This document shows positions 62 to 52,568 of a stretch of 64,000 nucleotides of DNA, in pieces. Within the stretch, counting starts at the first letter, position 1. Each line of letters opens with the position of its first letter. The stretch spans positions 74,483 to 138,482 of the forward strand of contig JBEKVQ010000002.1 of the NCBI GenBank assembly GCA_049997815.1, in the 5' to 3' direction. Origin of the DNA: Minisyncoccia bacterium. GTDB taxonomy: Bacteria > Patescibacteriota > Minisyncoccia > UBA6257 > GWB1-50-10. The translations under genes and the position numbers were made by a program. Under the pieces are notes generated by a model. It was not told the DNA's origin. It saw only the letters and a program-made list of their open reading frames with translations, and ran no database searches.

Positions 62-70
62 TGTTACAAT
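62..70 (+). promoter_or_regulatory. Extended -10 promoter-like element TGtTACAAT upstream of the long leader of the surface-protein gene
   Basis: tgtTACAAT at 62-70; same TGn-TAnnnT pattern recurs at other promoters in the window. Confidence 0.3.
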
Positions 71-445
71 ATAAGTAGGTTTTGCTTAGAGTGAGGCTAG
101 GCAAGGTGTCTAGCCGTTAGCGTGAGAATGCTAATGGCTTTACGTTTTAGCGGAACAAGGGAGGAATCCCGCGTTCGGCTTTGCTGGTCTCGCTTCAAGC
201 GGGACTTTTACTTTTTAGATACTACCCCACCGTTTCCTTGAGCTTCCGCCGCTTACCTCACTTAGGCGGTGGTCGAAAAGCCGGGTTAAATGGTGTTCCG
301 AAACCCAAAAGGTCGGCGGCTTGAAACGAAAAATCGTTTCCAAGTCCGAAAAATCGAAAATATTAAGTCGAAAACAAAACAATTAGCCGATTCAATTAAA
401 TAAGCGATTATTTCTTTGTTTTGGTTATTTGTACTAATTACAGTA

Positions 446-3400
446 ATGAGTAAATTAAGTCGAAAAGTTGTGGCGGTAGGCCTCACACTCACCACGGCCG
501 TTTGGCTCGCTGGTGCAGTGCTTCCGGCTTCCGCCCAAACCTCTGCGGCTACGATTGCCCAGTTAATGGCGCAAATCCAGGCTTTGCAGAGTCAGTTACA
601 GGCCCTTCAGGGTTCTGCGAGCACCCAATCATCTTCCTATAGCTTCACCAGGGACCTCACCCTTGGCAGCAAAGGAGCGGATGTGACGGCGCTTCAGCAG
701 TTCCTCGTGAGCGGCGCCTATCTACAGATGCCCGCCGGAGTGGCTTATGGCTACTTTGGTTCTTTAACGCAGGCAGCTGTGGTGCGCTGGCAGGGAGCTG
801 CCGGCGTCTACCCCACGGCCGGTTACTTCGGTCCTAAGAGCCGCGCGGCCATCGCTTTGGCCGTCGGTACGGGTACTGGTACTGGCACTGGGGGCGTAGT
901 TGTTTCCGGTCCGTCATCGGTGGCTTTGTCGCCGATGAATGTGGCGAACACGAACGTTCCGATTAACGTCGACACCACGCATTTTGAAGTGGTGCCGGTT
1001 TTGACGGTCCGCTTCACGGCCGGTCCGGCTCCTCTCACGGTCACTGGATTTAACGTCCAGCGCTCCGGTTTGTCCTCGGACCAGGATCTTGCGAACGTCT
1101 ATCTATTGGACGGTTCCAAGATCGTGACCACTAACATCGGTATGAACAACGGCCTCGTTCAATTCTCGAACGCCGCCGGTCTCTTCACGGTGAATGCGGG
1201 CACGTATAAGGATATTACAGTGGCGGTCTCCATCTCGATCTCCGCTACCGCTTCCGGCCACACTTACCAATTCTCCGTTCCTTCCGCGGCTTCAATAACC
1301 ACGGCGGGCGCGACGACGGTAGGCGGCGTGTTCCCGATTATGAGCAACACCATGACTGCCGCCTCGGTTACTAACCTCGGCGGAGTAACGGTCACGAACG
1401 GCTCGGCGGGTATCACGGCGGGTACGGCTCTTTCCGTAAACGCTGGTCAGGCAAAGTTCAATGCCGGCGTGTTCACCCTTCAGGCGAACAACCAGGCGGT
1501 TTCCGTGAAGTCAATCACTTTGACGAACACGGCAAGCTTGGGACCCTCTGATCTCGCGAATGTCACCCTTTATAACGGTGCGACGCAGGTCGGCACGGCA
1601 CAGGCAATCGGCGGTGCGAACCAGGTTACCTTCGATCTAACGGCTAACCCCCTACAGCTCTCGGCCGGGCAGAGCGTCCAGCTCTTCCTCTACACCGACA
1701 TTGTGGGCGGCGTGAACCGTTACTTCCAGTTCTCGGTTCAGCACAACTACGACATCGTGGCGACGGATATGATGTACAACATCGGATTCTTGCCGGCGAT
1801 GAACACCGGGAACTTCCCGATGAACTTGTCCTACGTCAGCGTTCAGCAGGGTACGCTCACGCTTACCCGCGATTTTGCCTCTCCGGTGAACTATGTTCTC
1901 CCGGGCGGGACGAATCAGACCATCGCGAAGTTTGACTTTGTGGCGGGCGGTGAAGCGGTGAAGATCACCCAGTTGAATGCAGTCCTGAATACCACGGCTA
2001 ACGTCACTAACCTCAAGGTTATTGATGACCAGGGTACGCAGATCGGCACGACCCAGGCTACGGTTGCAACGACCACGTATTACACGAACCTGAACTACTT
2101 GATCCCTTCGGGAACCAAGAGGGTGGTTTCGATAATCCTGGATGTCGGCACCAACTTCAGCGGCACCTTAACGGGTACCTTGAACAACATTGCGGGTCAG
2201 GGTTACACCTCGCTCGCGACGGTTCCCTCGACGGGCACGTTATCTTCAACGGGTAACACGCTCTCGGTTTCGGGCAGCATCCTGAGCGCTGGTTTGAACA
2301 GCGCGATGGGTAACACGAATGTCGTGTCGGGTCAGGTTAACGCGAGGATCGGCTCTTTCACTTTGACGGCTGGTCCCAGCTCCGGAGTGAATGTCTCGAA
2401 CTTCCAGTTCACGACGGCGGCGGCCTCGTATGATCCGGCCTCTAAGTACCAGAACGTGCGCTTGATGTATGGCAACACGCAGGTCGGCAACACGCAGAAC
2501 GTGTTGACGAACGGCGGTACCATCACCTTCAGCGCGGCTCAGCCGATCTTAATTCCGGCCGGCGGCCAGGTAATTCTTGATGTCTATGGAGACGTAAAGA
2601 CGGGCGCCGGTAGCGGCACCTCCACTCCGGGCATTGTGACTTTGGCCACGAACGGCGTTTCGGCGACGGCGGTGGCGACCACGCAATCCGTTTCTACGGT
2701 CACGGGTACTCCAACGCCCGGCCAGACGGTATTCTTAGTGGCGGCGGGTACGCTCGCCTTCAATGCCGGCAGTATGCCGGGCACAACGGCAGGCGCTACT
2801 CAGATTGGAATGGGTGTAACGGGTGTGAAGCTCGCTTCTTATCAGCTAACCGGCTCACCGAGCGAAGCGATCACTCTCAACAACGTTTACCTCACGTCCA
2901 CGTCGTCACTCACGGGCGCCTTCACCAACTTCCGGTTGATGAACGGTGCTACGCAGCTTGGCAGCGCTTTGTCCCCGAGTCAGTCGAGTTCGCCCTATAC
3001 CGTAACGTGGGTAGGTTTGAACCTTCCGATATCTCAGGGCGGCACGCTTACCTTGGATGTGGTGGCGGATGCGAACACGTATTCGGCGCTTTCCCAGGGT
3101 TATACGACCAGCTCGAACACCACAACGACGGTGTCGATCTATCAGCTTGACTACCAGGGAACGGCGTCCAACCAGACGGCGAGTGTGACCGGCACAGCTG
3201 TGTATGGCAATACCTTCGTTGCTGTCCGCAATACTTTGACGGCGGCGCTCGCGAGCGTACCGTTGGCTTCATCCGTGAGCGATGCCGCTAGCGTTGCAGG
3301 ATTCGCCTTCACGGCGGGTAATGCGGCAGGTACGCAGGACCCGGCTTACTTGAAGAGCATTGCGATCACCCAGATATACTCTGGCTTGAACTCGAGCTCT

Positions 3401-3760
3401 ACGATTCCTGTTACCTACCACGTCCTTGTTAATGGTCAGCAAGTAGCGACGGCTACTAGCACGACTCCTTCGGGAGGTTCCGCGACGCTTACCCTTAGCC
3501 AAGGGCCGGCGACATCGGGAGGACCCGGTGGCACGGCTGGTCTCATCATCACCAAGGGCACTTCCCAGACTCTCACGATCACGGCAGATCTGAGCTCGTC
3601 TCTGTTCACCGAAGCGACCCAGGGCGTGAAAGGACCCTATCAGATCAAGATGACGAATTACACTTGGTCCGATGGTACGATGGCGTCCATCAACGCGGAT
3701 CCGAACAATATCACTGCGACGAACCCGTTGTATGGCTCATCCGCTGCTCTCCAGTTCTAG
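446..3760 (+). CDS. Large secreted surface (S-layer-like) protein with signal peptide, coiled-coil, PG_binding_1-like domain, (GT)n linker and long Thr/Ser/Asn/Gly/Val-rich repeated beta-rich domains
   Basis: ORF 416-3760 (TTG at 416; ATG at 446 gives MSKLSRKVVAVGLTLTTAVWLAGAVLPASA-QT, a classic Sec signal with AXA site); IAQLMAQIQALQSQLQALQG coiled coil; GSKGADVTALQQFL...GYFGSLTQAAVVRWQ peptidoglycan-binding-like motif; GTGTGTGTG linker; recurring N[VF]xL[YM]NGATQ[VL]G modules. Confidence 0.85.
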   Translation: MSKLSRKVVAVGLTLTTAVWLAGAVLPASAQTSAATIAQLMAQIQALQSQLQALQGSASTQSSSYSFTRDLTLGSKGADVTALQQFLVSGAYLQMPAGVAYGYFGSLTQAAVVRWQGAAGVYPTAGYFGPKSRAAIALAVGTGTGTGTGGVVVSGPSSVALSPMNVANTNVPINVDTTHFEVVPVLTVRFTAGPAPLTVTGFNVQRSGLSSDQDLANVYLLDGSKIVTTNIGMNNGLVQFSNAAGLFTVNAGTYKDITVAVSISISATASGHTYQFSVPSAASITTAGATTVGGVFPIMSNTMTAASVTNLGGVTVTNGSAGITAGTALSVNAGQAKFNAGVFTLQANNQAVSVKSITLTNTASLGPSDLANVTLYNGATQVGTAQAIGGANQVTFDLTANPLQLSAGQSVQLFLYTDIVGGVNRYFQFSVQHNYDIVATDMMYNIGFLPAMNTGNFPMNLSYVSVQQGTLTLTRDFASPVNYVLPGGTNQTIAKFDFVAGGEAVKITQLNAVLNTTANVTNLKVIDDQGTQIGTTQATVATTTYYTNLNYLIPSGTKRVVSIILDVGTNFSGTLTGTLNNIAGQGYTSLATVPSTGTLSSTGNTLSVSGSILSAGLNSAMGNTNVVSGQVNARIGSFTLTAGPSSGVNVSNFQFTTAAASYDPASKYQNVRLMYGNTQVGNTQNVLTNGGTITFSAAQPILIPAGGQVILDVYGDVKTGAGSGTSTPGIVTLATNGVSATAVATTQSVSTVTGTPTPGQTVFLVAAGTLAFNAGSMPGTTAGATQIGMGVTGVKLASYQLTGSPSEAITLNNVYLTSTSSLTGAFTNFRLMNGATQLGSALSPSQSSSPYTVTWVGLNLPISQGGTLTLDVVADANTYSALSQGYTTSSNTTTTVSIYQLDYQGTASNQTASVTGTAVYGNTFVAVRNTLTAALASVPLASSVSDAASVAGFAFTAGNAAGTQDPAYLKSIAITQIYSGLNSSSTIPVTYHVLVNGQQVATATSTTPSGGSATLTLSQGPATSGGPGGTAGLIITKGTSQTLTITADLSSSLFTEATQGVKGPYQIKMTNYTWSDGTMASINADPNNITATNPLYGSSAALQF
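868..894 (+). repeat. In-frame (ggtacN)n microsatellite encoding a GTGTGTGTG linker
   Basis: ggtacgggtactggtactggcactggg. Confidence 0.6.
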
Positions 3761-3799
3761 TTCTTCCGAATCGGTTTCCTGATAGCGCATAATCAGGCA

Positions 3800-3837
3800 C
3801 CCCGCCAGTCCATTGGACTGGCGGGGTTTGTCTTTAT
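3800..3837 (+). terminator. Rho-independent terminator after surface-protein gene
   Basis: ccccgccagtcc-att-ggactggcgggg followed by tttgtctttat. Confidence 0.8.
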
Positions 3838-3850
3838 AGAATTAAATCTA

Positions 3851-4105
3851 ATGTTCTATGTTTATGTTTTGAAAAATAAATTCCGGCAGATTTATATCGG
3901 ATACACAGGAGATTTAAGATGAAGATTCAAGGACCATAATTCTGGCAGGTCAAAATATACGAAATTACGCCTACCCTGGACTCTGGCGTATTACGAGGCA
4001 TTTTTATCATCGAAAGATGCTAGAATTAGAGAAAGGACCCTGAAAAGTTATGGAAGTACTCTGGGTCAATTGAAAATAAGAATCAAAAATAGCCTAAACG
4101 GGTAA
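3851..4105 (+). pseudogene. GIY-YIG nuclease family (YhbQ/COG2827-like) gene interrupted by an in-frame TGA at 3920-3922
   Basis: Translation MFYVYVLKNKFRQIYIGYTGDLR*RFKDHNSGRSKYTKLRLPWTLAYYEAFLSSKDARIRERTLKSYGSTLGQLKIRIKNSLNG aligns along its length with the intact 94-aa GIY-YIG protein at 42083-42367 (FYYVYVIRSKKDGIWYTGFTPDLRKRFKEHN...ELIYYEASKNKADARSRERYLKSGMGKRYLKNRLKR); TGA is a genuine stop elsewhere in the window. Confidence 0.7.
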
Positions 4106-4138
4106 AAAGTATCAATGTGTAGCATATCTGTATTAATC

Positions 4139-4147
4139 TGTTATAAT
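4139..4147 (+). promoter_or_regulatory. Extended -10 promoter (TGtTATAAT) for the Wzy_C gene, flanked by direct repeats gtattaatc
   Basis: ctgtTATAAT at 4139-4147; gtattaatc at 4130-4138 and 4150-4158. Confidence 0.5.
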
Positions 4148-4165
4148 CCGTATTAATCCGTGTCT

Positions 4166-5533
4166 ATGGACTATTTAAAGATCTCGAAGCTCTTCCTGAA
4201 AATTTCGGTACTTTGTGTGGCGATTGTGACCGTTTCCACGCTTTTCCCGTTCATCGTCGGAAAATATTCCTGGTTCCGGGCGAGCGTGGATATCGCCCTA
4301 GTCTTTTTCTGTTTGGGGCTCATATTCCAACGGAACCTGGAACCGATCTGGGATCAGTTCCGGCGAATGTTTCGTTCGCCGCTCGTTTGGATGGTAACCT
4401 TGTTCATCGCCGTATTTCTTTTAGCTTGTCTTTTCGGCGTCAATCCTCACTGGTCTTTCTGGTCCAATTTCGAACGGGGCGAGGGGGGATTCCAAATGGT
4501 CCACCTTTACGTATTTTTTTTCCTTCTGGTTCTTTTGTTCCGTGAAGAAAAGGACTGGCAGAGCATCATGAAGTGGTTTTTAACCGGTGGTTTTTTGATG
4601 GTTCTCTACGGCGTGGCCGCGGGTTTCAAATGGTCCGGATTTGTAGGACCGGCTTTCGGTGATTCCGGTTATCGTTTTCAGGGATCTATCGGCAACCCCG
4701 CTTACGTTGCGATTTTTGCCGTATTTATGGTGTTTTATTGCCTATACCTGCTTTTTAACCGCTATCGCCAAAATTTGAAATCCGCCGGGGCCATAACTCT
4801 CTTCGTCCTACTTGCGGTCTTTCTCGCGACGTTCTTCGCGGCCGCGACCCGCGGCACTTTTGTGGGATTGATCGCGGCCATCGTGGTGTTTCTCGGATAT
4901 TTCGCCTACAGCCACAAGGCCTGGCGCAAACGAGCCCTCTTGGCCGGCATAGTAATTATCACCTTTGTGGTTATTATGGGAATCTTTAAAGACACTAAAT
5001 TCGTTCAAAGCATTCCCGGTTCGCGGGTCTTCGATCTTTCCGTGACCGCTCAGACTTTCAGCGACCGGGTCAAAATTTGGAATATGGCCTGGAACGGCTT
5101 TCTCGCCCGGCCGGTCTTGGGTTGGGGACCGGAAAATTTCATCCAGGTCTTTTATCGGTATTTCACTCCGGACTTCTTCTCGCCGAGTGTGGGATTCGGT
5201 GCCTGGTTCGACAGGGCTCACAGCTTCATCTTTGATTATCTGGCGGAGACGGGCGCGCTCGGGTTCCTGAGTTTTGCCGGCATCTTCGTCGCTTTCTTTT
5301 GGAAATTCTTCCGCTCTCAATCCCAGGATGCCGAAACGTCTTTTAGCCGAAGACCTCTCCTAGAAAGGTCCCTGATATTTGCTCTCCCGGTGGCCTATCT
5401 TGTCCAGGGATTGGTTTTGTTCGATGTTTTACCAATTTATATGAACATATTTTTCTTTATGGCTTTCGCGGTCTATTTATTTCAATCGGATCAGTCCCCA
5501 AAGAAAAACTCGCCGCAGTTTAGGCAATCATGA
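4166..5533 (+). CDS. O-antigen ligase / Wzy_C family polytopic membrane protein (candidate O-oligosaccharyltransferase or ligase)
   Basis: About 10-12 TM helices; RFQGSIGNPAYVAIF (R-x2-G-x3-NP-x3-A loop motif of WaaL/PglL/WsaB) and AHSFIFDYLAETGALG (conserved His + E-x-G motif); alternative GTG start at 4160. Confidence 0.8.
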   Translation: MDYLKISKLFLKISVLCVAIVTVSTLFPFIVGKYSWFRASVDIALVFFCLGLIFQRNLEPIWDQFRRMFRSPLVWMVTLFIAVFLLACLFGVNPHWSFWSNFERGEGGFQMVHLYVFFFLLVLLFREEKDWQSIMKWFLTGGFLMVLYGVAAGFKWSGFVGPAFGDSGYRFQGSIGNPAYVAIFAVFMVFYCLYLLFNRYRQNLKSAGAITLFVLLAVFLATFFAAATRGTFVGLIAAIVVFLGYFAYSHKAWRKRALLAGIVIITFVVIMGIFKDTKFVQSIPGSRVFDLSVTAQTFSDRVKIWNMAWNGFLARPVLGWGPENFIQVFYRYFTPDFFSPSVGFGAWFDRAHSFIFDYLAETGALGFLSFAGIFVAFFWKFFRSQSQDAETSFSRRPLLERSLIFALPVAYLVQGLVLFDVLPIYMNIFFFMAFAVYLFQSDQSPKKNSPQFRQS

Positions 5534-6141
5534 GAAGCTCGCTCAAATATATCCTTGCCGGCGTCTTGATCATTGCGGCGGTCTTCGCCACTGTTCGCGG
5601 TTCATTGCAGCCGTTCACGAAAGCCCAGCTTTTCATAAAGGGGCTAAAAAATCTTTCGAGCGTAAAAACACTCGATGATTTCACCGCCCAATTCGACGCC
5701 GTTTTCAACTATCCGTCGCCTGTCGGCAATGAAGAAGTAGCCAAGTTTTTGTCGGATCAGGTAACGAGCATCGTTTCCCAGCAAAGCCAGCCAGAAGACG
5801 TTTCCCGCGTCCTGGTTTCGTACATGGAGTCGCATATATCTCAGAATGATCTCCTGAGCCTTTTCACCATTGCCCATTTTCATGCGATCCTTTGGCAGAG
5901 GTTCCATAGGACAGAGGATTATTCGCAGGCGGAGCAGGCTCTGAAGAGGGCGCTTTCGATTGGCCCCGAGGTTCCTCCGGTGCTCTACAGCCTGGCCAGT
6001 CTCTATGCATCAGGCGGCGACAGGGTTAAGTTCGTGCAAACAGCCCAAACCATTCTTTCGTACTGGCCGGATGACACTCAATTAAAGAGCACTCTTGCAA
6101 ACCTTGCTTCGCCGGTTCCCGCCACCTCAGCCACTAAATAG
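5530..6141 (+). CDS. Hypothetical N-terminally membrane-anchored protein, possibly TPR-like C-terminus
   Basis: ATGA overlap with upstream stop; MRSSLKYILAGVLIIAAVFATV anchor; no recognised catalytic motif. Confidence 0.55.
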   Translation: MRSSLKYILAGVLIIAAVFATVRGSLQPFTKAQLFIKGLKNLSSVKTLDDFTAQFDAVFNYPSPVGNEEVAKFLSDQVTSIVSQQSQPEDVSRVLVSYMESHISQNDLLSLFTIAHFHAILWQRFHRTEDYSQAEQALKRALSIGPEVPPVLYSLASLYASGGDRVKFVQTAQTILSYWPDDTQLKSTLANLASPVPATSATK

Positions 6142-26601: not shown

Positions 26602-28071
26602 ATGATAGAAAACCTAAAAAACCTTTTCTTTGATCAGAAAAGCCAAAAGAAGACCGTTTTAAAGAATTTTCTGTGGTTGGGAACCAGTCAGGTTGGAGGC
26701 CGACTCATTAGAGGCATAATCACGATTTATTCTGCGCGCGCCTTGGGAACTGCTGGCTACGGCGTATTTTCCTATGCGATGGGACTTGCCGCTTTCTTTA
26801 TTTTTTTCAAGAACATCGGCGTGGACTCCATCCTAACTAGGGAAGTAGCACACCGGCCGTCGGAAAGAGATAGATTATTTGCGACCTCATTCTGGCTGGA
26901 GGTTGGTTTGCTCGTGATTACCGCGCTCCTCCTCCTTTTTGTGGCTCCGCTTTTTAGTCACATTCCCGAAGCTCTCGCCTTGATTCCGGCAGTGACCCTA
27001 ATGATCGTGGCGGATGATATGAAAGATCTTTTTATCGCTTTCTTCCGAGGAATAGAAAAAATGGAATGGGAAGCCGTGGTCACCGTTGCCTCCAATGTCG
27101 CCGTAGTTGTATTCGGTTTTGGCGCTCTCTTAATCTCGCCGACGCCGCTCTACCTTGCCTTGGCTTATGCTGCCGCCTCCGTTTTCGGGGTTCTTTTGGC
27201 CGGCGGCATAATTTTCGTCCGTCATGTTCGGGGGTTTTTCAAGAGTTTTGATAGCGGTTTGATTGCGCCCATTTTAATATCGGCCTGGCCGATCGCCATA
27301 GGGGGGCTGGCTGGCTTGTTCTTCTTTAATGTGGATATTATCATGCTGGGCTTTTGGCGAACCACCGATGATGTCGGTATCTATGCGGCCGTTCAAAAGA
27401 TTGTGGGTATTCTTTCGGTGATTCCGACCCTGATTATAACCAGCACCTTCCCGGTTTTTTCTAGGCTGGCCCATCAGAATGATTCGGTGCGAATGCGCCA
27501 GGCCATGGAAAGCGTAATTCGCATTCTTTTCCTGTTCTCGGTACCTCTTGTCTTGGGTGGCATTGTATTGGGTGCCCCCCTCCTGAACTTCATTTTCGGA
27601 AACGCTTACGGTTCGGGGGCAAGCGCCATGTCTATACTTTTGATTTCCATAATCGCCTCTTTCCCAACCGGCCTATTCTCTTATTTCATATTTGCCTATG
27701 ATAAGCAGCGCAAGATGGTTTTATATCCGATTATCGCCGCGCTGATCAACATTGGCCTGAATTTATTTTTGGTTCCTCGTTTTGGCATGATCGGCGCCTC
27801 GGTGGCAACCCTTACAACAAGCGTGATTTACTTTTTCTTGCTCTTCCAGCTTTGCTTGAAGATTGAACCGTTCTCATTATGGAGGGGATTCTCAAAGATT
27901 CTGGGTGTAGCGATACTCATGGCAATTTTTGCCTGGGTAATTCAATTGTCGGGCGTGCCAGTGCTCGCGAATATCGCTCTTTCCGCTGGGCTATACCTGT
28001 TCATTCTTAAGGTCCTAAAAGAAGAATCCCTGGAGGAGATTCTTTCTATGGTTCGTTCGACGCGGAGTTAG
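26602..28071 (+). CDS. Wzx-like oligosaccharide flippase (MOP/polysaccharide biosynthesis protein family)
   Basis: About 12-14 TM helices; paralogue of 42408-43880 (KKTVLKNFLWLG...IYSARALGTAGYGVFSYAMGLAAFF). Confidence 0.75.
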   Translation: MIENLKNLFFDQKSQKKTVLKNFLWLGTSQVGGRLIRGIITIYSARALGTAGYGVFSYAMGLAAFFIFFKNIGVDSILTREVAHRPSERDRLFATSFWLEVGLLVITALLLLFVAPLFSHIPEALALIPAVTLMIVADDMKDLFIAFFRGIEKMEWEAVVTVASNVAVVVFGFGALLISPTPLYLALAYAAASVFGVLLAGGIIFVRHVRGFFKSFDSGLIAPILISAWPIAIGGLAGLFFFNVDIIMLGFWRTTDDVGIYAAVQKIVGILSVIPTLIITSTFPVFSRLAHQNDSVRMRQAMESVIRILFLFSVPLVLGGIVLGAPLLNFIFGNAYGSGASAMSILLISIIASFPTGLFSYFIFAYDKQRKMVLYPIIAALINIGLNLFLVPRFGMIGASVATLTTSVIYFFLLFQLCLKIEPFSLWRGFSKILGVAILMAIFAWVIQLSGVPVLANIALSAGLYLFILKVLKEESLEEILSMVRSTRS

Positions 28072-47147: not shown

Positions 47148-48671
47148 ATGAAGGACAAAAGAATCATTTTTTTATTACCGCTCCTGGCCGTCGACCTTTT
47201 ATTGTTTAACGTTACTCTCGCCTTCACTGGTCCGGGAACCCTGCAACCCGGTTCGGGCGGCGGACTTCTTTTCAGTTCCAGTACGTACATTGGCATCGGG
47301 ACGACGAATCCCGCCGTAACCCTGCATGTCGTAGGAGGAGTTGGAGGAATAAACATCGCTCGTTTTTCTCGTACCAATGGCGCTACCACTGATTCTTTCT
47401 TTTCTGGGTCCGGCGGTTCTTCTTTTGTGGGTTTCACCGATAATGCCAGCGTATCTTGGAGTTTAGGTAGTGATAATGGTGATAGTAGTAAGTTCAAAAT
47501 ATCAAAAAGCATCGATCTTGGTTCTAATTATTATCTAACCATTGATGATGCAAATGGGAACGTCGGCATCGCGACCACCTCTCCCACCTATCCGCTCACG
47601 GTGAATGGGAGCGTGTACTCGACAGGGAATTTTATCGGGGGTCTTTCAGGAACGCTCACTGCCGGGAATATTACCGGTCCCACGGCATTCGGTGCGACCT
47701 TCCAGACTGCTCCTCCCGTCGGATATGTATACGCCTTCCCGCAGGCGCTCGCAGTGGGAACGACGACGGTCGCCGGTTTGCAGACGAATATGTTGTTCGC
47801 GGCCGGTAACGTCGGTATCGGAACGACGGCACCGGTAACAAAATTGGATGTTTCTGGAGCTATAACTGCAAGAGGTGCTAATCCGGGCGGAATCGGCGCG
47901 AATGCTACGGTACTGGATTTTAGCGGAGGAACCGCTCGGTGGTTTAGTTATGGACCAGATGCTTCTACGAACGGCATATTTCAACTTTATTCTCAGAGAA
48001 GCGATGGAACAAATAATATAATTCCAGTCACAATTTTAGGAAATGGCAACGTCGGCATCGGGACGACGGGGCCGGGAGGTATGTTGCATGTAAGAGGTAA
48101 CGGTGTCGCCCAGCCGATGGTAATTGTTGAGGATTATTCTGCTGCCAGCAATCCTGCTATCCAAATAAAGAACGACACGACAAATTGGTTTTTGGAAACG
48201 GTTGGGGCACGAAGCAATAATTTTGAAATTTCGCACGGTGGCGGTGCGGCATCAAATTCATTTCTGGCAATTCAAACGAACGGCAACGTCGGCATCGCAA
48301 CCACCACGCCTAAATATCCACTCTCGGTCAATGGCTCTTATTATTCGGTTGAGCTTGATAAGGGAAACTCCGGTGCTGCTATAACGATTGACTGGAGTGC
48401 AGGCAACACCCAGCACGTAATTTTGACGTCTGGTCCAGGGACTCCCGTAGCTCTCACGTTCACGAATCCCCAGCCGGGTGCCCGCTATACGCTTATTCTG
48501 AAACAAGACGGCACTGGCGGAAGAACCGTGACCTGGCCCGCGACCTTCAGAACTGGTTCGGCCGGACCCATCACTCTCTCGACAGCGCCCAACGCGACTG
48601 ACTACGTGGGTCTTCAGTACAACGGCGTGGACGGAAAATACGATAACGTCGCCTTCAACGCGGGATTCTAA
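47148..48671 (+). CDS. Secreted repeat protein with five about 80-aa tandem repeats carrying GNVGIGTT(x)P motifs
   Basis: Signal peptide MKDKRIIFLLPLLAVDLLLFNVTLAFTG; repeats YIGIGTTNP / GNVGIATTSPTYPLTVNGS / GNVGIGTTAPVTKLDVSGA / GNVGIGTTGPGGMLHVRGN / GNVGIATTTPKYPLSVNGS. Confidence 0.8.
   Translation: MKDKRIIFLLPLLAVDLLLFNVTLAFTGPGTLQPGSGGGLLFSSSTYIGIGTTNPAVTLHVVGGVGGINIARFSRTNGATTDSFFSGSGGSSFVGFTDNASVSWSLGSDNGDSSKFKISKSIDLGSNYYLTIDDANGNVGIATTSPTYPLTVNGSVYSTGNFIGGLSGTLTAGNITGPTAFGATFQTAPPVGYVYAFPQALAVGTTTVAGLQTNMLFAAGNVGIGTTAPVTKLDVSGAITARGANPGGIGANATVLDFSGGTARWFSYGPDASTNGIFQLYSQRSDGTNNIIPVTILGNGNVGIGTTGPGGMLHVRGNGVAQPMVIVEDYSAASNPAIQIKNDTTNWFLETVGARSNNFEISHGGGAASNSFLAIQTNGNVGIATTTPKYPLSVNGSYYSVELDKGNSGAAITIDWSAGNTQHVILTSGPGTPVALTFTNPQPGARYTLILKQDGTGGRTVTWPATFRTGSAGPITLSTAPNATDYVGLQYNGVDGKYDNVAFNAGF
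47285..48520 (+). repeat. About 240-nt (80 aa) in-frame tandem repeats x5 within the secreted protein gene
   Basis: ggNaacgtcggNatcg recurs at 47557, 47805, 48045, 48282 (plus a variant at about 47290). Confidence 0.7.
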
Positions 48672-51600
48672 CGAAATTACTTTTCAGGTCTCGTCGGATG
48701 CGGCGGAGGTTTTTGGCAATCAGCCGCCCGACAGCGTTCGGGCTGAATTTTTTTATAATGTCGCTTTGAGCGACCATCCCTTTGCGCGCCGCTATCTCGC
48801 GGTTCTCGTATATCAATCGCATTCGCCTCGCCGCTTCGTGTTCGTCCGGCTCCGCCCATTCGTTTCCCTGCCGGTAGATGCCGTAATCCCGCTTCAGGGG
48901 AACCAGTTTGTAGTTTATGGGGAAGCTGTTCATCTCATTCATGAAATCCGCGTTCCCGGACCAGTTGGTGGCGATGACCGGCTTCCGGAGAGCCATCGCT
49001 TCGGCGAGCGGCAGGCCGAACCCTTCCGAGCGGTGAAGAGAAACGTAGCAGTCGCAGACGTTCAATAAACTCGCGATCTCTTCGCGGGCCAGATAGCGGG
49101 GGATAAGGTGGATATTGTGTCCTTTCGCGGCGTCCTCGAGAAGCCGAAAATTTTTCGGTTCGACCTTGGGATTGGAACACTTTATAACAAGATGAACGAG
49201 CTCTTCCGAAGAGAACGCTTCCTTGAAGGCGCGGATGGCCGCGAGCGGATTTTTTCTCTCAAAGATGCTGAAGAAATCGAACATAGAGAGGAAGAGGATA
49301 TGTCCTTCGGGCAGTTCGAAGTGCGCGCGGGGGAAAGGATGTCGTCCCACCTCAATGGCGTGGGGGATGACGGTAACGGGGATGTCAGGCCTTAGGCGCT
49401 TTACGGCATCTGCCACGAAAGAACTCGGCACCCAAACTTCGTTTACGCGGTCAAGGAGCTTGCCCCATTCGGGCGGCATCTCCGGAAGTTCCCAGGCCCA
49501 ATAGGCGATATTGTATTTGCCGGCGAATCTCTCTTCCCCGAAGTTTTCGAGTTCTATCCCGAACATGTCCCCGTAGATGGCGATGAGATTTACCCGATAG
49601 GGATTGGTCTTGGCGAATCTTTTGGAAAATTGATTCTCGTTCCGCCGGTGGGGAACGCGGGGACTATTGAGGAGGGCGGAGGGAATGCCGGCCTGGTCCA
49701 CGGCGCGGATAAGGGTCCGAGCGGCTTCGCCGACGCCGCTTTCGGAGTCCAGAAACCCGAAGATATTCACTCCACTTCTGGCGTCTCGCCTGGAATATCT
49801 TTCGGATAAGCGATTGCCGGGGGAATCGGCAATTCGGATTTTGTCCAAGCTTTCCTGGTTTTCTTCGCGAGTCTCCCCGGTTTTTCTTAACTTCTCTCTC
49901 TGCTGTTCCGCCGAAAAACTTTCCACATCGATTTTCCCGGCTCGGCGGTTGTAGAGTAGGTGCATTCTGGTGGTGAGATATTTCACAGGACCGTACTCCA
50001 GATACATCTTCGAATATAGTTTTACGAAGAATGTCGGTTTGCCGCGGACGAGTTTTTTGGGATTGATGCGTCCCAGAACCGCATTTTGAATATGTGAACC
50101 CTCGCGTCGGAGCGTTTCCATTACCTCGGCCGGAAACGGTTTCCCCGTTTGTGTCTCGATCGCGCGGAGATAGAAGAAAAGTTGGGAGAGGGCGTTGCTC
50201 CGTCTTCCCTCATCGATAACCTCCCGCCAGTTCGGTTCGTTCTCCTTTAGGAAGCTTGCGGCGGCGGTTATCCTTCGGCCACACTTTTTGAATTGCTTCG
50301 GAAAGTGGTAATAAGAAAGTTCAAGGCATAAAAGGCAAGCATCGGTCACGAGCGCACCGGGACCGTTTTGAAGAGCCATGTCCGAGATTGATGAGAGCGA
50401 GAACGGTAGATTCGAGAGGCGTTCGGAGAGGGACAATCTGTCGCCCTGCCTCATCATATTCACGGGCGGCAGGATGACGCGGTGTTTGAAGAGATTAAAG
50501 ACGGGCAGAACCATCCTGTGTTTTGCGAAGTTATAGACGGGCAGAACCATCCTGTGCTTTACCCAGTTAAGGGGAGGAATGAATATCGGCAGGATGATCT
50601 TGTGTTTCAGAAAATTGTATGGGGGTAGTACCACCCTGTGTTTCACGAAATTGAACGGGGGGAGAAATAACGGCAGCACCACCCTGTGTTTCATATAGTT
50701 GAAGGCCGGAAGGATAATCTTGTGTTTCGCATATTCCAGAGATGGAGGAAGACGGTGGTACTTTTGCATCGGCCGCTTGGTGGCGCGCCGGGGTTCCGCG
50801 GGAACGGTGAACCTGTTTTTTTGTTTTTCTATCCAGGCCCTTACCGGGGTGGTGTCCTGAGCAGCAAGCTCCAAAATGAATTGGTCGGTTCTCTTCCGGC
50901 TTCGCTGTATCTTCCGTCGTTCCTTGAGGGTGTTTGGCAAATGCAGGATATTCCATCCCAGAGCCAAAAACGGGATTGAAACGTATGTGAGTTTCTTTCC
51001 CAAAGGGATCTGATATTTGCTGGTCTGGAAATATCCGACAATGGCGAACCAATAGCCGATGAGTACGTACGAAATTTGCCTGGGGAGTTCGGGCGCCCCG
51101 TAGTTCTTGATGGCCGATCGCAGGGCGTTTTTCTTGCAGAGATAAAGTTTTTTGTATTGGGCTCCCCGATAACTCGCGCTGTGTTTGTGATAAATGACGG
51201 CGTCTTTTTCGAAGAATATGTCGTAGCCCATGAGGTTGGCGCGCCAGCTCCAGTCCAGGTCCTCGAAATAAGCGTTGAATTTCTCGTCGAGAAATCCGAC
51301 CTTCCGGAGCGCGTCGGCGCTTATAAGCGACGCTCCCCAGCACGCCCCCAATACCTTAGAGCTCCTTTTCTTGCCGAACTGCCTCTGAAGGCCGAAGTTA
51401 GCGTCGTAACCGTCGCCGTTCCAGTCTATCGTTCCGCCTTGGCTGTTTATTATCTCCGGATGATTGTAAAAGAGCATATTGGAGGTTACCGCGGCGATGT
51501 TTGGGGCGCTCTTCGCTCTCCGGACGAGTGCGGCAAGCCAAGCGCTCTCGGCTCTCGTATCATTGTTCATGACGGCGATGAAACCGGGATGGTACTTCTG

Positions 51601-51840
51601 GAGGGAATAGCGCAGTCCCGCATTCACCGTGCGGGCGAAGCCCCGATTTCGGGGAAGAATGAGAATGTCCACTTCCGGAAAATTCGCGCGGAGATATTCC
51701 TCGGTGTCATCGGTCGAAGCATCGTCGGCGACGACGGTCTTAAAGTTTTGGTACGATTGTCCGCGCAGGGAACGTAAGCATTCATCGAGAAGCTGTCTGC
51801 CGTTGTAGGAGGGGATGACGATTATCGTTTCGTAGGCCAT
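48655..51840 (-). CDS. Multi-domain glycosyltransferase: N-terminal GT2 + central 12-aa tandem-repeat module + C-terminal GT4
   Basis: IVIPSYNGRQLLDECLRSLRGQSYQNFKTVVADDASTDDT (GT2); PAFNYMKHRVVL/PPFNFVKHRVVL/PPYNFLKHKIIL/PPLNWVKHRMVL/PVYNFAKHRMVL/PVFNLFKHRVIL repeats; RSEGFGLPLAEAMALRKPVIATNWSGNADF (GT4). Start set at ATG 51840 (MAYETIIVIPSYNG), 8 nt after upstream stop; ORF extends to 51936. Confidence 0.8.
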   Translation of the reverse strand: MAYETIIVIPSYNGRQLLDECLRSLRGQSYQNFKTVVADDASTDDTEEYLRANFPEVDILILPRNRGFARTVNAGLRYSLQKYHPGFIAVMNNDTRAESAWLAALVRRAKSAPNIAAVTSNMLFYNHPEIINSQGGTIDWNGDGYDANFGLQRQFGKKRSSKVLGACWGASLISADALRKVGFLDEKFNAYFEDLDWSWRANLMGYDIFFEKDAVIYHKHSASYRGAQYKKLYLCKKNALRSAIKNYGAPELPRQISYVLIGYWFAIVGYFQTSKYQIPLGKKLTYVSIPFLALGWNILHLPNTLKERRKIQRSRKRTDQFILELAAQDTTPVRAWIEKQKNRFTVPAEPRRATKRPMQKYHRLPPSLEYAKHKIILPAFNYMKHRVVLPLFLPPFNFVKHRVVLPPYNFLKHKIILPIFIPPLNWVKHRMVLPVYNFAKHRMVLPVFNLFKHRVILPPVNMMRQGDRLSLSERLSNLPFSLSSISDMALQNGPGALVTDACLLCLELSYYHFPKQFKKCGRRITAAASFLKENEPNWREVIDEGRRSNALSQLFFYLRAIETQTGKPFPAEVMETLRREGSHIQNAVLGRINPKKLVRGKPTFFVKLYSKMYLEYGPVKYLTTRMHLLYNRRAGKIDVESFSAEQQREKLRKTGETREENQESLDKIRIADSPGNRLSERYSRRDARSGVNIFGFLDSESGVGEAARTLIRAVDQAGIPSALLNSPRVPHRRNENQFSKRFAKTNPYRVNLIAIYGDMFGIELENFGEERFAGKYNIAYWAWELPEMPPEWGKLLDRVNEVWVPSSFVADAVKRLRPDIPVTVIPHAIEVGRHPFPRAHFELPEGHILFLSMFDFFSIFERKNPLAAIRAFKEAFSSEELVHLVIKCSNPKVEPKNFRLLEDAAKGHNIHLIPRYLAREEIASLLNVCDCYVSLHRSEGFGLPLAEAMALRKPVIATNWSGNADFMNEMNSFPINYKLVPLKRDYGIYRQGNEWAEPDEHEAARRMRLIYENREIAARKGMVAQSDIIKKFSPNAVGRLIAKNLRRIRRDLKSNFVRIPR
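50462..50757 (-). repeat. 36-nt (12-aa) tandem repeat x about 8, with two 12-nt insertions, coding the KH[RK]hhLP..N.. module
   Basis: gacgggcagaaccatcctgtg... repeated on + strand; protein repeats listed above. Confidence 0.8.
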
Positions 51841-51848
51841 CTTGTCGC

Positions 51849-52568
51849 TTAAAGTCCCCCGTATTGGTCTAGAACGTCCTTCGTCTTTCCGAAAGCTTTC
51901 AATTCGCCTTTGTCGAGGAGAAGCGTGCGCTCGCAATGTTCGGCAACGGCAGTCAGGTCGTGGCTAGCGAAGATTATGGTTTTTCCCCTTCGCTTGTAAT
52001 CCTCGAATACGGAGAAGCATTGCGGTTTGAAATCCTTGTCACCCACGGCGAAGATTTCGTCCAGAAGAAGCACGTCAGGGTCGGTTTGCACCATCGTAGC
52101 GAAAGCGAGGCGTGCTATCATGCCCGATGAAAAATTCTTAACCTTCATATCCCTGAACTTTCCGACGCCAGCGAAGTCGAATATCCGGTCCAGCTTGTCT
52201 TTTATCTCTTTCCGCGGCATGCCCAAAATGGCGCCGTAGAGGTAAAGATTTTCTTGGGCGGTAAGTTCATGATGGAAACCGACGCTCAAACTTAGAAGAG
52301 GCGCTACCGTGCCCTCGATTTGAAATTCACCTTCGGTGGGCGGCACTATCCCCCCCAGAATCTTAAGAAGAGTGGTCTTTCCGCTTCCGTTCTTGCCGAC
52401 CAGCCCCACCATTTCGCCCTTGTCTATTGAGAAATTCACGTTTTTTAGGGCATAAAAGTTCTCGTAGGTTACCTGGTCCTTTATGTAGCCCAAGACGAGC
52501 TCGAAAAGCGTCGTCGTTTTCTCGTGGGGAATCCTGTATAACTTTGCGATGCCTTTAGCTTTAATCAT
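51849..52568 (-). CDS. ABC transporter ATP-binding protein, Wzt/TagH-like polysaccharide exporter
   Basis: GLVGKNGSGKTTLLKIL (Walker A), LLLDEIFAVGD (Walker B). Confidence 0.85.
   Translation of the reverse strand: MIKAKGIAKLYRIPHEKTTTLFELVLGYIKDQVTYENFYALKNVNFSIDKGEMVGLVGKNGSGKTTLLKILGGIVPPTEGEFQIEGTVAPLLSLSVGFHHELTAQENLYLYGAILGMPRKEIKDKLDRIFDFAGVGKFRDMKVKNFSSGMIARLAFATMVQTDPDVLLLDEIFAVGDKDFKPQCFSVFEDYKRRGKTIIFASHDLTAVAEHCERTLLLDKGELKAFGKTKDVLDQYGGL

Follow-up and report, generated by a model that had tools for sequence, protein, structure and literature searches.

A probable surface-layer protein of six immunoglobulin-like modules in a Minisyncoccia genome, its conserved leader and its glycan neighbourhood

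The window analysed here, 64,000 nucleotides (nt) of contig JBEKVQ010000002.1 from a Minisyncoccia bacterium, carries near its left end a gene for a wall-anchored surface protein, and we think it likely that its product is the principal protein of the surface lattice (S-layer) in a patescibacterium of the Paceibacteria/Parcubacteria type. The protein combines a signal peptide, a short helix, a peptidoglycan-binding domain, a Gly/Thr linker and six homologous modules that are predicted to fold as immunoglobulin (Ig)-like beta-sandwiches. It is a further member of a recently proposed protein kind and is ordinary for its lineage. The original prediction, made from the letters of the window, had leaned towards an S-layer protein, and this leaning is supported: the product is a modular, secreted, wall-anchored surface protein with real internal homology.

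Patescibacteria account for much of bacterial diversity; most of them have not been cultured, and they live in attachment to other cells, with their envelope as the interface for this lifestyle. S-layers have been seen on patescibacterial cells, and a 2017 Parcubacteria genome paper still called the envelope unclear.

Anchor, modules and fold

The open reading frame (ORF) at 446-3760 is real, and its start codon is supported by the N-termini of homologs, which share the form MSKxxxK in a family alignment of 50 sequences (A1); a protein identical to the window protein (P0001; homologous proteins and loci are cited by our P and L numbers) was recovered in the homolog search. The signal peptide was read by eye from the sequence, without a dedicated predictor; in A1 its residues K7, G23 and A30 hardly vary, and residues 1-34 have a predicted local distance difference test score (pLDDT) below 50 in the AlphaFold2 model. 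In the helix that follows, I37, L40 and L47 are nearly invariant, and the region gives a weak FlxA-like Pfam match; it is a possible coiled coil through which the protein may oligomerise. Behind this helix lies the PG_binding_1 domain that had been predicted to follow a coiled coil. Its PF01471 match is above the Pfam gathering threshold and covers profile positions 2-55 of 57, the region forms three helices in the AlphaFold2 model, and matches from a sequence search of the PDB (4lpq and 5nm7) are confined to it. This domain is the cell-wall anchor. It is the sole domain found by a Pfam scan of the protein; there is no Pfam match to an SLH domain at E <= 1, and no meaningful match in NCBIfam.

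The near-absence of charged residues noted earlier is confirmed, with D+E+K+R at 5.8%, T+S+G+N+V+A at 63% and no Cys. The charged fraction is the lowest among the 64 ORFs of at least 200 residues in the window, for which the median is 24.7%. The G+C content is 0.54-0.55 over the first 4 kb compared to 0.46-0.54 in most of the window, in keeping with a protein composed largely of Thr, Ala, Gly, Ser and Val.

A more complex picture emerges for the repeated part of the protein. The original prediction described at least four modules with the signature N[VF]xL[YM]NGATQ[VL]G, and recurring modules are indeed present, but there are six rather than four (M1 to M6, of which M3 and M6 had been missed), and the strict signature occurs only twice, at residues 372 (nt 1559) and 828 (nt 2927). 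Relaxed forms are seen at about nt 1094, 2009, 2453 and 3416, with a spacing of about 150 residues, and the named sites at nt 1094 and nt 2453 are such looser variants. Comparison by hhalign of orthologous sub-alignments cut from A1 joins all 15 module pairs in register, at 95-99% probability and E values of 1e-8 to 1e-18. Column-shuffled controls of the same composition give probabilities of no more than 2.5%, and the signal is therefore not an artefact of composition. The check by profile methods that came with the original prediction bears out the internal homology, in six units. A hidden Markov model (HMM) built from M2 orthologs alone finds M1, M3, M4 and M5 in the window protein, with i-E values of 2.7e-3 to 2.3e-15; M6 is not significant with this HMM and is detected by profile-profile comparison alone. 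Whole-protein self-BLAST returns only the identity match, and BLAST between segments is significant only among M2, M4 and M5 (E values of 2e-5, 8e-6 and 2e-3; 28-38% identity), with other pairs weak and several of them in similar register, so profile methods are needed to see the repeats. We propose that the six modules arose by ancient internal duplication.

The AlphaFold2 model calculated from A1 has a mean pLDDT of 83.5 and shows tandem Ig-like beta-sandwiches. Low confidence is confined to the signal peptide, residues 55-63 and the linker at residues 141-154, and beyond residue 156 the model is all beta-strand, in blocks of about 150 residues. The signature motif spans two adjacent predicted strands (370-377 and 380-385) with an N-G turn between them. 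A Foldseek search of the PDB with the full model returns Ig-like domains of PrgB, macroglobulin (MG) domains of alpha-2-macroglobulin, integrin legs and pilins. A stand-alone model of M2 (residues 300-456; pLDDT 84.5, predicted template modelling score 0.77) finds only weak matches to cohesins and carbohydrate-binding modules, with template modelling scores of 0.41-0.46, the best being cohesins at E 2.7e-3 and a score of about 0.43, and this single-module search assigns no specific fold family. The modules are thus predicted to be sandwich domains that lack a close solved relative.

Family membership and competing readings

A word-indexed search yields more than 420 homologs, mostly of 1060-1300 residues and nearly all with PF01471. 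Species-representative genomes contain 479 relatives, from Colwell-, Wolfe-, Lipton-, Jorgensen-, Harrison-, Kaiser-, Lloyd-, Nealson- and Komeilibacteria and others. When a library of 1.84 billion representatives is scanned with the M2 profile, 2777 cluster representatives (50% identity) carry the module, typically in 5-6 copies in full-length relatives, and the window protein itself shows six matched stretches. The few homologs with names at source are for the most part annotated 'peptidoglycan-binding protein', from Parcubacteria, Patescibacteria or Minisyncoccia; where named, both homologs and loci are mostly from Parcubacteria, Paceibacterota or Minisyncoccia.

This family meets a published proposal. 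Passages of a preprint (bioRxiv 10.1101/2024.05.28.596244) describe a SymProFold prediction of an S-layer protein from Patescibacteria, built with six Ig-like assembly domains, for which multimer predictions gave confident p6 assemblies; they list proteins of 1131-1274 residues, with numerous homologs across patescibacterial classes, and state that in two Paceibacteria homologs rank in the top five signal-peptide genes by expression. A separate study (PMC10936435) found proteins with peptidoglycan-binding domains (PGBDs) among the top five expressed signal-peptide genes of three Paceibacteria, and these highly expressed proteins have similar predicted structures. The examples named in those preprint passages (Nealsonbacteria A0A1G2EN61, Kaiserbacteria A0A0G1WWP5 and Parcubacteria GMX59286.1, of the same phylum and of 1131-1274 residues, compared to 1104 here) were compared by description only, as cluster look-ups gave other accessions and the 1185-residue homolog P0113 comes from a different metagenome-assembled genome. 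As described there, they share with the window protein a signal peptide, six serial Ig-like domains, very many homologs across classes and highly expressed relatives bearing PGBDs. The window protein very probably belongs to this six-domain S-layer kind.

A plausible scenario is that the pre-protein is exported by Sec, with removal of the 30-residue signal peptide, and that the short heptad helix and PG_binding_1 would hold the N-terminus on the cell's own peptidoglycan. The flexible Gly/Thr linker would connect this anchor to the six Ig-like domains, which may assemble into a lattice, and the surface, which is rich in Thr/Ser and nearly without charge, probably bears O-linked glycans from the island immediately downstream. 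The gene would be highly expressed, as reported for PGBD proteins of three Paceibacteria; the strong terminator after it and the long conserved leader before it are consistent with the S-layer reading.

Some observations weigh against that reading. Lattice formation is taken from prediction in the preprint, and the preprint accessions are not matched directly to the window protein. According to the same passages (bioRxiv 10.1101/2024.05.28.596244), a 13-nm lattice on unidentified Patescibacteria fits a three-domain protein (13.5 nm) better than the six-domain one (18.5 nm). The Wzy_C neighbour discussed below is absent, or escapes detection, in about half of the loci. The Wzy_C family also covers ligases and polymerases that act on non-protein acceptors, and a Wzx flippase is encoded in the island, so the glycan could be a wall polymer. 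Finally, 5.8% charged residues is atypical for classical bacterial S-layer proteins.

Two other readings keep a surface protein at this place and differ in what it does there. In one, the protein is a host-attachment adhesin or 'extracellular enzyme' of an episymbiont, whose peptidoglycan-binding domain grips the host wall with the Ig-like domains as a stalk. The highly expressed PGBD/Ig-like proteins of Paceibacteria are read as possible host-adhesion factors in PMC10936435, and adhesins such as PrgB typically contain Ig-like domains in tandem, as do pilins, both of which are among the fold matches. However, no catalytic domain was found in Pfam, NCBIfam or the PDB sequence search, the N-terminal anchor and the proximal modules are the most conserved parts, and one rigid architecture is kept across diverse lineages and habitats, whereas host-specific adhesins usually vary in domain number. 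Methanogenic archaea are not known to have murein. The hosts in PMC10936435 are methanogenic archaea, and PG_binding_1 more plausibly binds the bacterium's own wall, which leaves the adhesin unlikely. The other reading is of an abundant glycoprotein, anchored to the wall, whose coat is non-crystalline and fibrillar or brush-like, without a true two-dimensional lattice, as might be suggested by the extremely low charge and Thr/Ser-rich composition, the adjoining glycan island, the flexible linker and the predictive nature of the lattice evidence in the preprint passages. It is rather improbable given the fixed count of six domains and the conserved inter-domain regions in thousands of relatives, which suggest precise packing constraints, and given the confident p6 assemblies predicted for the six-domain patescibacterial protein in those passages.

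The original prediction had further compared the protein with beta-solenoid adhesins and regarded the modules and a Gly/Thr-encoding microsatellite as sites of phase or antigenic variation, and neither proposal survives. Only the T, S, G, N, V and A composition recalls a beta-solenoid; the confident AlphaFold2 models are strings of discrete sandwiches, their PDB matches are Ig-like, MG-domain or cohesin-like, and there is no beta-helix in the top 50 PDB matches of either model, so that we reject this fold as practically excluded. As to a contingency gene in which the microsatellite and modules drive variation, the hexanucleotide tract does exist (Tandem Repeats Finder (TRF) reports 866-891, period 6, 4.3 copies and 90% matches), it resembles a simple sequence repeat, the linker differs among species and M6 evolves fast. 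However, slippage of a 6-nt unit stays in frame and cannot cause a frameshift, and the tract is short and imperfect. A cluster at 90% or higher identity comprises eight proteins, differing by 1-3 substitutions, whose assemblies come from NCBI, JGI, ENA and Logan, and the linker GTGTGTGTGG is identical in all six other members that span it; length differences within the cluster reflect start-codon calls or truncations. An invariant linker among strains, the outcome named beforehand as refuting such variation, is accordingly what is seen at this level. Low-complexity linkers usually differ between species, and here they range from 10 to 68 residues and differ in both length and sequence. The modules are only 24-38% identical in pairwise protein comparison, and no DNA repeats longer than 27 nt at 70% identity are found between them, which leaves recombination without a substrate. 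The module is absent from every other ORF in the window, and there is no paralogous cassette in these 64 kb. Relatives keep 5-6 detectable modules at lengths of about 1070-1350 residues, and module number is fixed among them. Such a contingency gene is very improbable and close to refuted. The variation that is seen is slow, ordinary divergence, concentrated in the distal M6 and the linker, and is not switch-like. Identity to the four closest homologs is 77-81% for M1-M3, 70% for M4, 66% for M5 and 43% for M6, with the same trend at greater distance, and the position of M6 as the most divergent and most variable module fits an exposed tip. We note that in P0050, P0052, P0060, P0070 and P0085 the plain Gly/Thr linker after PG_binding_1 is replaced by one or two Cys-containing inserts (approximately LPAGCTSTxGYSxTTGxxC).

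Table 1. Positions of the surface-protein gene, its parts and its neighbours in the window (nt; aa, amino acid residues).
Feature	Position	Strand	Basis
Extended -10-like box TGTTACAAT	62-70	+	TTTG(T/G)TATAA kept in about 12 related loci; putative promoter
Hairpin HP1, invariant loop GUGAGG (91-96)	83-103	+	Covariation, loop conservation
Terminator-like hairpin HP2 (186-206) and U-run	184-217	+	96.5% of cells paired
Hairpin HP3, loop CCUCAC (256-261), complementary to HP1 loop	245-272	+	Stem covariation
Invariant box AAAGGUCGRCGG	307-320	+	Alignments; GUCGA-like motifs repeat downstream to about nt 385
Surface-protein gene	446-3760	+	ORF list; 1104 aa plus stop; ATG at 446
Sec signal peptide, aa 1-30 (MSKLSRKVV...LPASA, cleaved before QTS)	446-535	+	Basic n-region, hydrophobic core, A-x-A site
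Helix, aa 34-54	545-607	+	Helix in model; Ile/Leu at 3-4 spacing (I37, L40, I44, L47, L51, L54)
PG_binding_1 domain, aa 77-134	674-847	+	Pfam PF01471, E 8.5e-6; 26.3 bits, cut-off 23
Imperfect (GGTACN)4 tract encoding GTGTGTGTG, flexible linker	866-892	+	TRF; pLDDT <50 at aa 141-154
Module M1, aa 156-305	911-1360	+	Motif NVYLLDGSKIV (N = aa 217, nt 1094); hhalign E 1e-8 to 1.5e-14; all-beta in model
Module M2, aa 306-455	1361-1810	+	Motif NVTLYNGATQVG at nt 1559; BLAST, hhalign, own model
Module M3, aa 456-603	1811-2254	+	Motif NLKVIDDQGTQIG at nt 2009; hhalign, M2 HMM
Module M4, aa 604-761	2255-2728	+	Motif NVRLMYGNTQVG at nt 2453; BLAST, hhalign, M2 HMM
Module M5, aa 762-924	2729-3217	+	Motif NFRLMNGATQLG at nt 2927; BLAST, hhalign, M2 HMM
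Module M6, aa 925-1104	3218-3757	+	Degenerate motif YHVLVNGQQVA at about nt 3416; hhalign E 5e-8 to 1e-9
Intrinsic-terminator-like hairpin (3799-3827) and T tail	3799-3837	+	13-bp stem, 10 G-C pairs; 39 nt past stop codon
Wzy_C (O-antigen-ligase family) membrane protein	4160-5533	+	Pfam E 7e-16
TPR protein after Wzy_C gene	5530-6141	+	Pfam TPR_19
Glycan-biosynthesis island	6155-36660		Pfam scans; extends to at least 36.6 kb

Glycan genes and leader around the gene

The gene pair that follows the surface-protein gene encodes a Wzy_C protein, a candidate O-oligosaccharyltransferase, ligase or polymerase, and a TPR protein. The glycan island beyond them contains methyltransferases, GT4 and GT2 glycosyltransferases, sugar dehydratases, epimerases, a DegT aminotransferase, a dTDP-sugar epimerase and a Wzx-type flippase (26602-28071). 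A Wzy_C-family transferase with a TPR partner, together with glycosyltransferases and nucleotide-sugar enzymes, is therefore found beside an S-layer-type gene, the combination known from the clusters reviewed in PMC2943079. Sequence reaches at least 2.5 kb past the surface-protein gene in 61 related loci; a Wzy_C homolog lies directly downstream on the same strand in 22 of them (24 if two overlapping ORF calls are included) and anywhere in the locus in 30, with only about five loci having it in the 8-kb upstream flank. A TPR homolog follows Wzy_C in 13 loci, and in L001 the order is Wzy_C, TPR and an Asn-synthase homolog. L003 is without nearby glycan genes, and L005 has a flippase and transferases without Wzy_C. 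The link between surface protein and Wzy_C is frequent and not universal.

Several other features of this region are noted. The island, a very large one with which 48655-51936 on the reverse strand is grouped, also includes at least seven methyltransferases, transketolase-like genes and a B12/radical-SAM enzyme; a 1092-residue GT2+GT4 fusion lies further on. In L031, L037, L068, L074, L076 and L078 there are two Wzy_C-family genes in tandem: a divergent copy comes right behind the surface-protein gene, and about 2.4-3 kb further on stands a close ortholog of the Wzy_C gene of the window, together with TPR. Between the surface-protein terminator and the Wzy_C gene is a small forward-strand ORF resembling GIY-YIG nucleases (3851-4105; Pfam E 2.3e-13 with the stop masked) with an in-frame TGA at 3920-3922, a candidate for a pseudogene or for read-through. 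A 10-nt tandem repeat, ATCTGTATTA, with 3.3 copies and 78% matches, occupies 4126-4158, immediately 5' of the GTG start of the Wzy_C gene. No tRNA genes were found in the window.

On the other side of the gene, the 445 nt upstream contain no ORF and align with the upstream regions of homologs that are only 32-51% identical in protein. No Rfam 15 family reaches its gathering score anywhere in the window, and nt 1-600 show no match at E <= 1. Searching 1.35 Mb of sequence with a covariance model of nt 181-323 (R1) gives 39 matches, in the window and 38 related loci. The match is just upstream of the surface-protein gene and on the same strand in 37 of 86 related loci. Of the two weakest matches, that in L007 precedes the gene by about 360 nt, and that in L084 comes just after it. 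In the alignment fitted to R1, 92% of cells are paired, compared to 33-45% for slid partners, and compensatory changes are present in eight of 11 pairs.

GTGAGG, the HP1 loop, is present upstream in all 36 loci with enough upstream sequence, and the HP1 stem has 75% of cells paired (17-48% in slid controls) and 31 compensatory cells; CCTCAC, the HP3 loop, is present in 33 of 37 model matches, and in HP3 helix 2 all four pairs are changed on both sides. GUGAGGC and the 3' arm of HP1 are complementary to the bases just before HP2 and to its 5' arm (G[C/U]CUCGC), such that 184-195 can instead pair with 89-100 (GAGUGAGGCUAG) in an antiterminator-like manner. The minimum free energy fold of nt 77-330 uses this alternative helix (z = -4.3). 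Cognate duplexes have an energy of -17.4 kcal/mol versus -15.7 for non-cognate ones, with none of 5000 permutations as low, and the pairs flanking the alternative helix covary, with 78% of cells paired versus 29-44% when slid, and 25 compensatory cells. The leader thus appears, from its predicted pairings, to have the anatomy of a terminator/antiterminator switch, in which the partner of the invariant GUGAGG loop would lie in the context of its own hairpin, in the terminator's 5' arm or in the CCUCAC loop downstream.

Other observations concern the flanks of this element. The region 52-323 (to 445) is conserved in L001, L011, L020, L037, L045 and about 30 other loci, just 5' of the homologous gene. 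TTGACG at nt 35-40 was considered as a -35 box and rejected, as its spacing to the -10-like box is 24 nt and varies between loci. GAUAYYAAC after the terminator may be a second promoter, although it is not consistently -10-like. A block CGTAAC-N(about 14)-TTTCGTTAT at 1-29, 5' of the -10-like box, has the same position in L001, L005, L011, L020, L037, L045, L046, L087 and L089; the block forms a partial inverted repeat, possibly an operator or a terminator belonging to the gene before it. Upstream synteny in L001, L005/L006, L087 and L089 consists of a trypsin-PDZ protease, ClpB and a protein of 250-261 residues with a weak DUF5656 match, and a gene-free gap of about 500-600 nt separates this block from the surface-protein gene.

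A wider proposal joins these two neighbourhoods: that the leader of about 370 nt is a new class of cis-regulatory RNA controlling expression of the Paceibacteria S-layer gene by choice between terminator and antiterminator, and that the downstream Wzy_C and TPR proteins form a protein O-oligosaccharyltransferase. We put it forward tentatively, as somewhat less probable than even. The conserved structured leader may be new, as may the Wzy_C/TPR synteny; neither appears in the passages of the SymProFold preprint retrieved by term search.

The protein is labelled in databases only as a 'peptidoglycan-binding protein', and a six-domain, S-layer-type identity would improve the annotation of thousands of genes. 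With the conserved Wzy_C/TPR neighbour, a glycosylated patescibacterial S-layer becomes a testable hypothesis; if the pair is an O-oligosaccharyltransferase, S-layer glycosylation would be a widespread and genetically linked trait of these ultra-small bacteria. The leader offers a handle on regulation of what is probably the cell's most abundant protein. The glycosylation neighbourhood and the leader RNA are worth following, and the phase-variation and beta-solenoid claims can be dropped.

Comparison with known regulatory leaders and S-layer systems

The leader resembles transcription attenuators and the expression platforms of riboswitches: its terminator hairpin carries a U-run, and this hairpin and a covarying upstream pairing exclude each other. 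It differs from them in the absence of an Rfam 15 match, in the second complementary loop (CCUCAC) downstream of the terminator, and in that no conserved aptamer is evident, since the segment between its two elements varies in both length and sequence.

For the protein, passages of the preprint draw an analogy to csg of Haloferax volcanii, which likewise has six Ig-like domains in a spiral and forms hexagonal pyramids. No homology was detected, csg being absent from the top 50 fold matches of the window model. It is also archaeal, has a lipid- or membrane-anchored C-terminus and an acidic composition, and has the opposite polarity, with its N-terminal domains at the hexamer.

A closer parallel in organization is offered by SgsE/SbsC of Geobacillus stearothermophilus and SpaA of Paenibacillus alvei, in which an N-terminal wall anchor is likewise followed by Ig-like 'beads on a string', with six such domains also in SgsE according to the source passages. 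There is no sequence homology, and the anchor here is PG_binding_1, whereas theirs is SLH or an alpha-helical domain binding secondary cell wall polymer; the lattice predicted for the six-domain patescibacterial protein is hexagonal and theirs is oblique, and the composition here is far less charged. The slg clusters of these bacteria nonetheless place a similar set of genes beside the S-layer gene, including Wzy_C with TPR, an Asn-synthase homolog, glycosyltransferases, methyltransferases and nucleotide-sugar enzymes. As reviewed in PMC2943079, the G. stearothermophilus cluster has WsaA (TPR) and WsaB (Wzy_C), and that of P. alvei has WsfA (an Asn-synthase homolog) and WsfB (Wzy_C with TPR). 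The Wzy_C and TPR pair of the window resembles WsaB/WsaA and WsfB, and the gene order in L001 mirrors that of WsfA/WsfB and WsaA/WsaB.

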